A DNA stretch of 5,755 bases from a virus (Duplodnaviria > Heunggongvirae > Uroviricota > Caudoviricetes): IMG/VR virus record IMGVR_UViG_2713896790_000009. The stretch is one strand, 5' to 3'. Positions 1-1,399 of this stretch are shown here, in pieces. The translations under genes were made by a program, and so were the position numbers. The notes below the pieces were generated by a model. That model was given only the letters and a program-made list of their open reading frames with translations, did not search any database and was not told where the DNA came from. The first letter of the stretch is position 1, and every line of letters starts with the position of its first letter.

Positions 1-1399
<1,399 letters not shown>

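Follow-up and report, generated by a model that had tools for sequence, protein, structure and literature searches.

An amber codon in the J host-specificity gene of a lambda-like prophage from a strain closely related to Escherichia coli 042

Introduction

The stretch of DNA analysed here (the window; 5,755 nucleotides of IMG/VR virus record IMGVR_UViG_2713896790_000009, Caudoviricetes) carries an in-frame TAG within a phage J host-specificity gene, and the question raised by this locus is whether the gene is truly broken, whether the stop is read as an amino acid, or whether the stop is a fault of the sequence. An earlier note, made from the letters of the window, had put forward these three readings as an inactivated J in a defective or cryptic prophage, a phage that depends on an amber suppressor, and a sequencing error. 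We compared the window with J of lambda, with related prophage loci, and with the E. coli assemblies that carry the same sequence.

Results and Discussion

The J gene and the layout of the window

The window begins inside a lambda-type J gene and contains its 3' third in two segments, 1-812 and 863-1399. The features of the window, followed by the Pfam domains in J residues, are given below.

1-812, plus strand: J gene (tip attachment / host specificity protein), codons 657-927, frame 1; aligned to the 042 J, and annotated as gpJ in relatives
214-216, plus strand: amber codon TAG, codon 728 of the 1131-codon J; CAG (Gln) to TAG, C-to-T at 214
406-408, plus strand: first in-frame GTG after the TAG (open reading frame list), the annotated start of the 340-aa 'host specificity protein' VED14538.1 (deposited gene call)
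427, plus strand: Thr799Ala in J (ACA to GCA), G in the window versus A in 042, KK19-02, and Ecol_316; second lineage-specific J substitution
813-862, no strand: run of 50 N in place of 79 real J bases (codons about 928-953), as judged from relatives and LR134238.1
863-1399, plus strand: J gene, codons 954-1131 and TGA stop, frame 2; identical to the 042 J from residue 954
1467-1984: lom
2049-4424: side tail fibre gene, 791 aa
4424-4705: open reading frame, 93 aa
4715-5755: tail fibre domain gene, 346 aa
J residues 610-714: Ig_J
J residues 716-818: Ig_J_second
J residues 845-972: Phage_Tail_Tip
J residues 1001-1131: Ig_GpJ_C

By sequence, domains, and gene order, the gene clearly belongs to the lambda J family. 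The phmmer comparison of J with 8iyk_J gave an E value of 0 and 2313 bits, six J domains (FNIII-A_GpJ, Phage-tail_3, Ig_J, Ig_J_second, Phage_Tail_Tip, and Ig_GpJ_C) were above the Pfam cut-off in the intact 042 orthologue, and the tail genes were found in the order tape measure, M, L, K, I, J, lom, and side tail fibre, as is typical of a lambda-type J. In comparison to lambda gpJ (PDB 8iyk, 8k35, 8xcg, and 8xci), the 042 J showed 89% amino-acid identity over residues 1-1131, and the series of Pfam domains, the gene order from I through J and lom to the side tail fibre gene, and the motif around Gln728 are the same; the differences are the TAG at codon 728 in the window and a C-terminal receptor-binding region that has diverged from lambda, so that the receptor may differ.

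J seems to pass from frame 1 to frame 2 at 813-862, but a second lesion there was considered and rejected: 79 bases lie behind the 50 N, and in every relative the two flanks share one frame. Another run of exactly 50 N, at 1907-1956, replaces 132 real bases inside lom. The N runs do not preserve length and therefore create false frame changes in both genes; the frame jump of J and the odd end of lom are masking artefacts.

The amber codon in J

Positions 205-222 read GGC TAT TTT TAG ATA ACC in frame 1, and the TAG is the sole stop in this frame between positions 1 and 812. The translation of the window aligned gap-free with the J proteins of lambda and E. coli 042, which bears out the claim that the amber codon lies in frame within J. 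The earlier note had given a Gln for lambda at this place, and this was right, as the alignment puts Gln728 in the motif TPGYFQITATP of both the lambda and the 042 protein. The single C-to-T transition that had been proposed could be observed directly: at position 214 the nearest relatives (E. coli 042, KK19-02, and Ecol_316) have C where the window has T, and codon 728 is CAG in all 13 other loci compared (lambda, 042, KK19-02, Ecol_316, and nine more). The homologous codon is thus a sense codon, one base away from a stop, in close as well as distant relatives and in an otherwise conserved frame, which is the pattern of a pseudogene made by nonsense mutation.

The stop falls within Ig_J_second, upstream of Phage_Tail_Tip and Ig_GpJ_C. 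When the TAG is read through, the window encodes these last three J domains, with the tip-fibre and C-terminal receptor-binding domains encoded by the segment 863-1399, beyond the amber codon. The first GTG that follows in frame, at 406, is preceded by no obvious Shine-Dalgarno sequence; re-initiation there is for this reason not favoured, and the deposited start at this codon is probably an annotation artefact rather than a genuine restart. At the other lineage-specific position, residue 799, lambda has Ala, as does the window.

Related loci and the neighbouring tail genes

The closest known counterpart is 042p3 (ROD21, 50.4 kb) of enteroaggregative E. coli 042, with 99.94% identity over 19.3 kb and with the same sitABCD cargo adjoining the tail fibre genes, at the tail end. 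The window and 042 are 100% identical over 863-1906 and 1957-5755, and there are two mismatches over 1-812 (T versus C at 214 and G versus A at 427). The J of 042p3 is intact at 1131 aa, in contrast to the window strain, in which Q728* and T799A are joined by six further substitutions.

The degree of identity to relatives changes along J. Positions 1-812 of the window are 99.75% identical to both 042 and KK19-02, while for 863-1906, which runs from the C-terminal end of J to lom, identity is 100% with 042 and only 96% with KK19-02; the same region is 99.3% to 99.5% identical to prophages that are only about 90% identical across 1-812. This pattern suggests recombination break-points close to where J encodes its receptor-binding end. 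In CP007393.1 (locus L006, 1-9269), the same tail module is disrupted in another way and to a much greater extent: just the last 217 J codons are left, and antirepressor, KilA-N, and RepL-like genes are located upstream.

Identical copies of the 791-aa side tail fibre protein occur in many E. coli genomes (132 index blocks), in prophages at varied chromosomal sites (by trp, sit, ompN/ydbK, and dinI), with two copies in a single genome (L009/L010), and the gene looks like a widely exchanged tail fibre module. Within this gene, a tandem repeat was observed at 2586-3002, with a period of 189 nt (63 codons), 2.2 copies, 84% matches, and sub-repeats of 42 nt.

Occurrence of the TAG and CAG alleles

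The pattern scan with a 20-mer carrying CAG matched at least 120 viral contigs, in comparison to 0 matches in viral contigs and genome contigs for the same 20-mer carrying TAG. A lone metagenome match of the TAG 20-mer was dismissed as chance, as it has just 23 nt in common and lies outside any J gene, and a 43-mer spanning the TAG gave 0 exact matches in genome, viral, and metagenome contigs. With an 81-nt query around the TAG, 7857 places were found in the 5426 RefSeq complete E. coli genomes, and none of them was 100% identical; J-like places numbered a median of two per complete E. coli genome. The TAG allele is thus absent from the 5426 complete genomes and from the scanned genome, viral, and metagenome collections. 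A literature search by the assembly accession numbers LR134238.1 and LR134246.1 returned nothing. The novelty is confined to the allele, in that this J amber allele is not known to have been described.

Mutation or sequencing error

The window agrees with LR134238.1, an E. coli chromosome of 5.278 Mb, at every unmasked base (100% outside the N runs), and the same TAG was found in J of LR134246.1, an E. coli chromosome of 5.298 Mb. Both fragments into which the TAG splits J were predicted from the 042 J and looked up as exact protein sequences, and exact matches were obtained among deposited proteins, namely VED35905.1 (727 aa, LR134246.1) for the first and VED14538.1 (340 aa, from GTG 406 and with Ala799, LR134238.1) for the second.

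It is very unlikely that the true base at 214 is C and that J is intact, even though the source assemblies are noisy, with several genes split, and neither is among the RefSeq complete genomes searched. Compared with 042 across 19.3 kb, LR134238.1 has 8 substitutions and 3 single-base deletions; LR134246.1, compared across 18 kb, shows the same 8 substitutions together with 20 single-base indels and, beside one indel, an adjacent A/T swap. The two assemblies differ from each other by indels and the A/T swap alone and have no indel in common, while the TAG is a substitution that both share along with 7 others. Because the substitutions are common to both assemblies and the indels are not, the indels look like noise and the TAG like a genuine mutation of the lineage. 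We found the stop reproduced across both assemblies, with all indels specific to one of them, and no Dam (GATC) or Dcm (CCWGG) site overlaps the TAG position. The indels are probably errors of an unpolished long-read consensus, and the simplest reading of these sequence differences is that LR134238.1 and LR134246.1 may be taken as two independent unpolished assemblies of one lineage. The sequencing error proposed in the earlier note is therefore unlikely, as the same T occurs in a second, separately assembled genome with the same substitutions and different indels. Both assemblies may come from one strain stock, in which case the mutation may date from the time of storage or passage in the collection and not from nature.

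In the deposited gene calls of both assemblies (L015 for LR134238.1 and L016 for LR134246.1), single-base indels split the tape measure, M, K, I, J, side tail fibre, and sit genes. One of them, a 1-nt deletion in LR134238.1 (L012, position 6114), places a frameshift in J upstream of the window; it was rejected as real because it is missing from LR134246.1, where J is open and identical to the 042 J for residues 1-727, so that the frameshift is noise.

Suppression and recoding of the amber codon

If the stop is genuine, it may still be read as an amino acid. A suppressor-dependent or leaky J, with glutamine inserted either by a supE-type suppressor or by tRNA-Gln reading through UAG-A, would make the prophage only conditionally defective, and Gln inserted at codon 728 would give back the ancestral protein unchanged. 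Suppression is favoured when UAG is followed by a purine, and some natural coliform isolates are reported to carry amber suppressors. No tRNA gene was found, however, in the window or around J in the LR134238.1 locus (21 kb) or the LR134246.1 locus (22 kb), the strain is a near-relative of the wild clinical isolate 042 and not a K-12 laboratory strain, and nothing in the data requires suppression. The earlier suggestion of suppressor dependence thus stands in so far as a Gln-inserting suppressor would give back the ancestral J, and it finds no support within the 21-22 kb around the gene; we regard this reading as highly improbable. The more specific possibility, that the strain of LR134238.1 and LR134246.1 has a natural amber suppressor or sizeable UAG-A read-through and is thus a natural conditional 'sus' lysogen, appears extremely remote. 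If it were true, full-length wild-type J would be made at a reduced level, and infectivity would be limited rather than abolished. The classical lambda J amber (sus) mutants, which were selected in the laboratory and are propagated on suppressor hosts, resemble the present case in that the amber codon is in J and a Gln-inserting suppressor would restore the wild-type protein; the present allele differs in having arisen spontaneously in the prophage of a culture-collection strain of E. coli, and the 21-22 kb around J gave no sign of a suppressor.

Systematic recoding of TAG to Gln is known from genetic code 15 phages of other hosts, and the only point of agreement here is the coincidence that the ancestral residue is Gln. 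Neither a series of in-frame TAG codons in late genes nor an avoidance of TAG as terminator, both of which mark stop-codon recoding, was found: the 11 tail-region genes of the 042 counterpart contain no in-frame TAG, and the ydaY-like gene of the same prophage uses TAG as its terminator. As all relatives have CAG and no suppressor tRNA is located nearby, TAG recoding is effectively refuted. Nonsense mutations in other late genes, which the earlier note had asked about, did not appear either; apart from the J amber, none of the substitutions by which the window strain differs from 042 in these tail genes creates a stop.

Substitution spectrum

The changes relative to 042 that are synonymous are located in the tape measure gene, in J (Pro350), and in sitD; the remaining ones are Q728* and Thr799Ala in J, a two-base change within one codon of a 99-aa open reading frame, and one intergenic change. 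The stop-creating share of possible substitutions in these tail genes is about 3.9%, and if 6 coding substitutions arise without selection, one or more of them would be nonsense in about 21% of cases. With such a share, one nonsense change among six coding changes is unremarkable, and the event is as neutral drift in a silent prophage gene predicts.

Consequences for J and the prophage

The inactivated J in a defective prophage is the best supported of the three readings, with the derived TAG present in two assemblies and the distal domains lost. We give a probability of about 0.85 to the interpretation of these sequences as a genuine derived nonsense mutation in J, which would make the counterpart of 042p3, in a strain very close to 042, a newly defective prophage. 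The change of CAG to TAG (Gln728 to stop) would be a recent one in the J of this lambda-like prophage, and translation would end after residue 727. The fragment would keep the N-terminal hub part with the FNIII-A, Phage-tail_3, and first Ig domains, while most of the second Ig-like domain, the tip-fibre domain, and the C-terminal receptor-binding domain would be lost. Solved lambda J constructs start at residue 713 (8xcj/8xck, and 9wca/9wcb, the latter named 'A8 gpJ 713') and cover the distal part of J, so that the lost part would comprise almost all of the distal module. In lambda, tail assembly begins with J, and the receptor is bound by the J C-terminus; as J is needed for both steps, the 727-residue fragment should not yield infectious particles, and the loss of function is thus predicted from the missing tip-fibre and receptor-binding domains. 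The prophage would then produce no infectious particles from its own J, and the mutation would presumably be neutral in the lysogen.

Strain 042 carries four lambda-like prophages, and the authors of its genome regarded 042p3 as having every gene that a functional phage needs (PMC2808357). In the present strain, J could be supplied in trans, or the gene repaired by recombination, from other lambda-like prophages of the same genome. The mutational decay of prophages into defective or cryptic ones, such as Qin and Rac of K-12, is comparable in that a point mutation inactivates a gene needed only for lytic growth and unselected in the lysogen; the known cryptic prophages differ in having large deletions, while the present prophage looks otherwise complete as far as it was seen and would have only just begun to decay. 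The J lesion is ordinary prophage decay by point mutation, and it works like a classical J amber but arose spontaneously.

Conclusions

For annotation, the 'tail component of prophage' VED35905.1 (727 aa) and the 'host specificity protein' VED14538.1 (340 aa) are parts of one amber-broken J and are due to be annotated as a pseudogene. The comparison also demonstrates that two noisy long-read assemblies of one lineage can tell real substitutions from indel errors. As a small example of the first step in prophage decay, the case is ordinary and of little importance beyond annotation; for the organism, it means that the sitABCD prophage of this strain, unlike 042p3, is probably unable to spread as an infectious phage with its own J.
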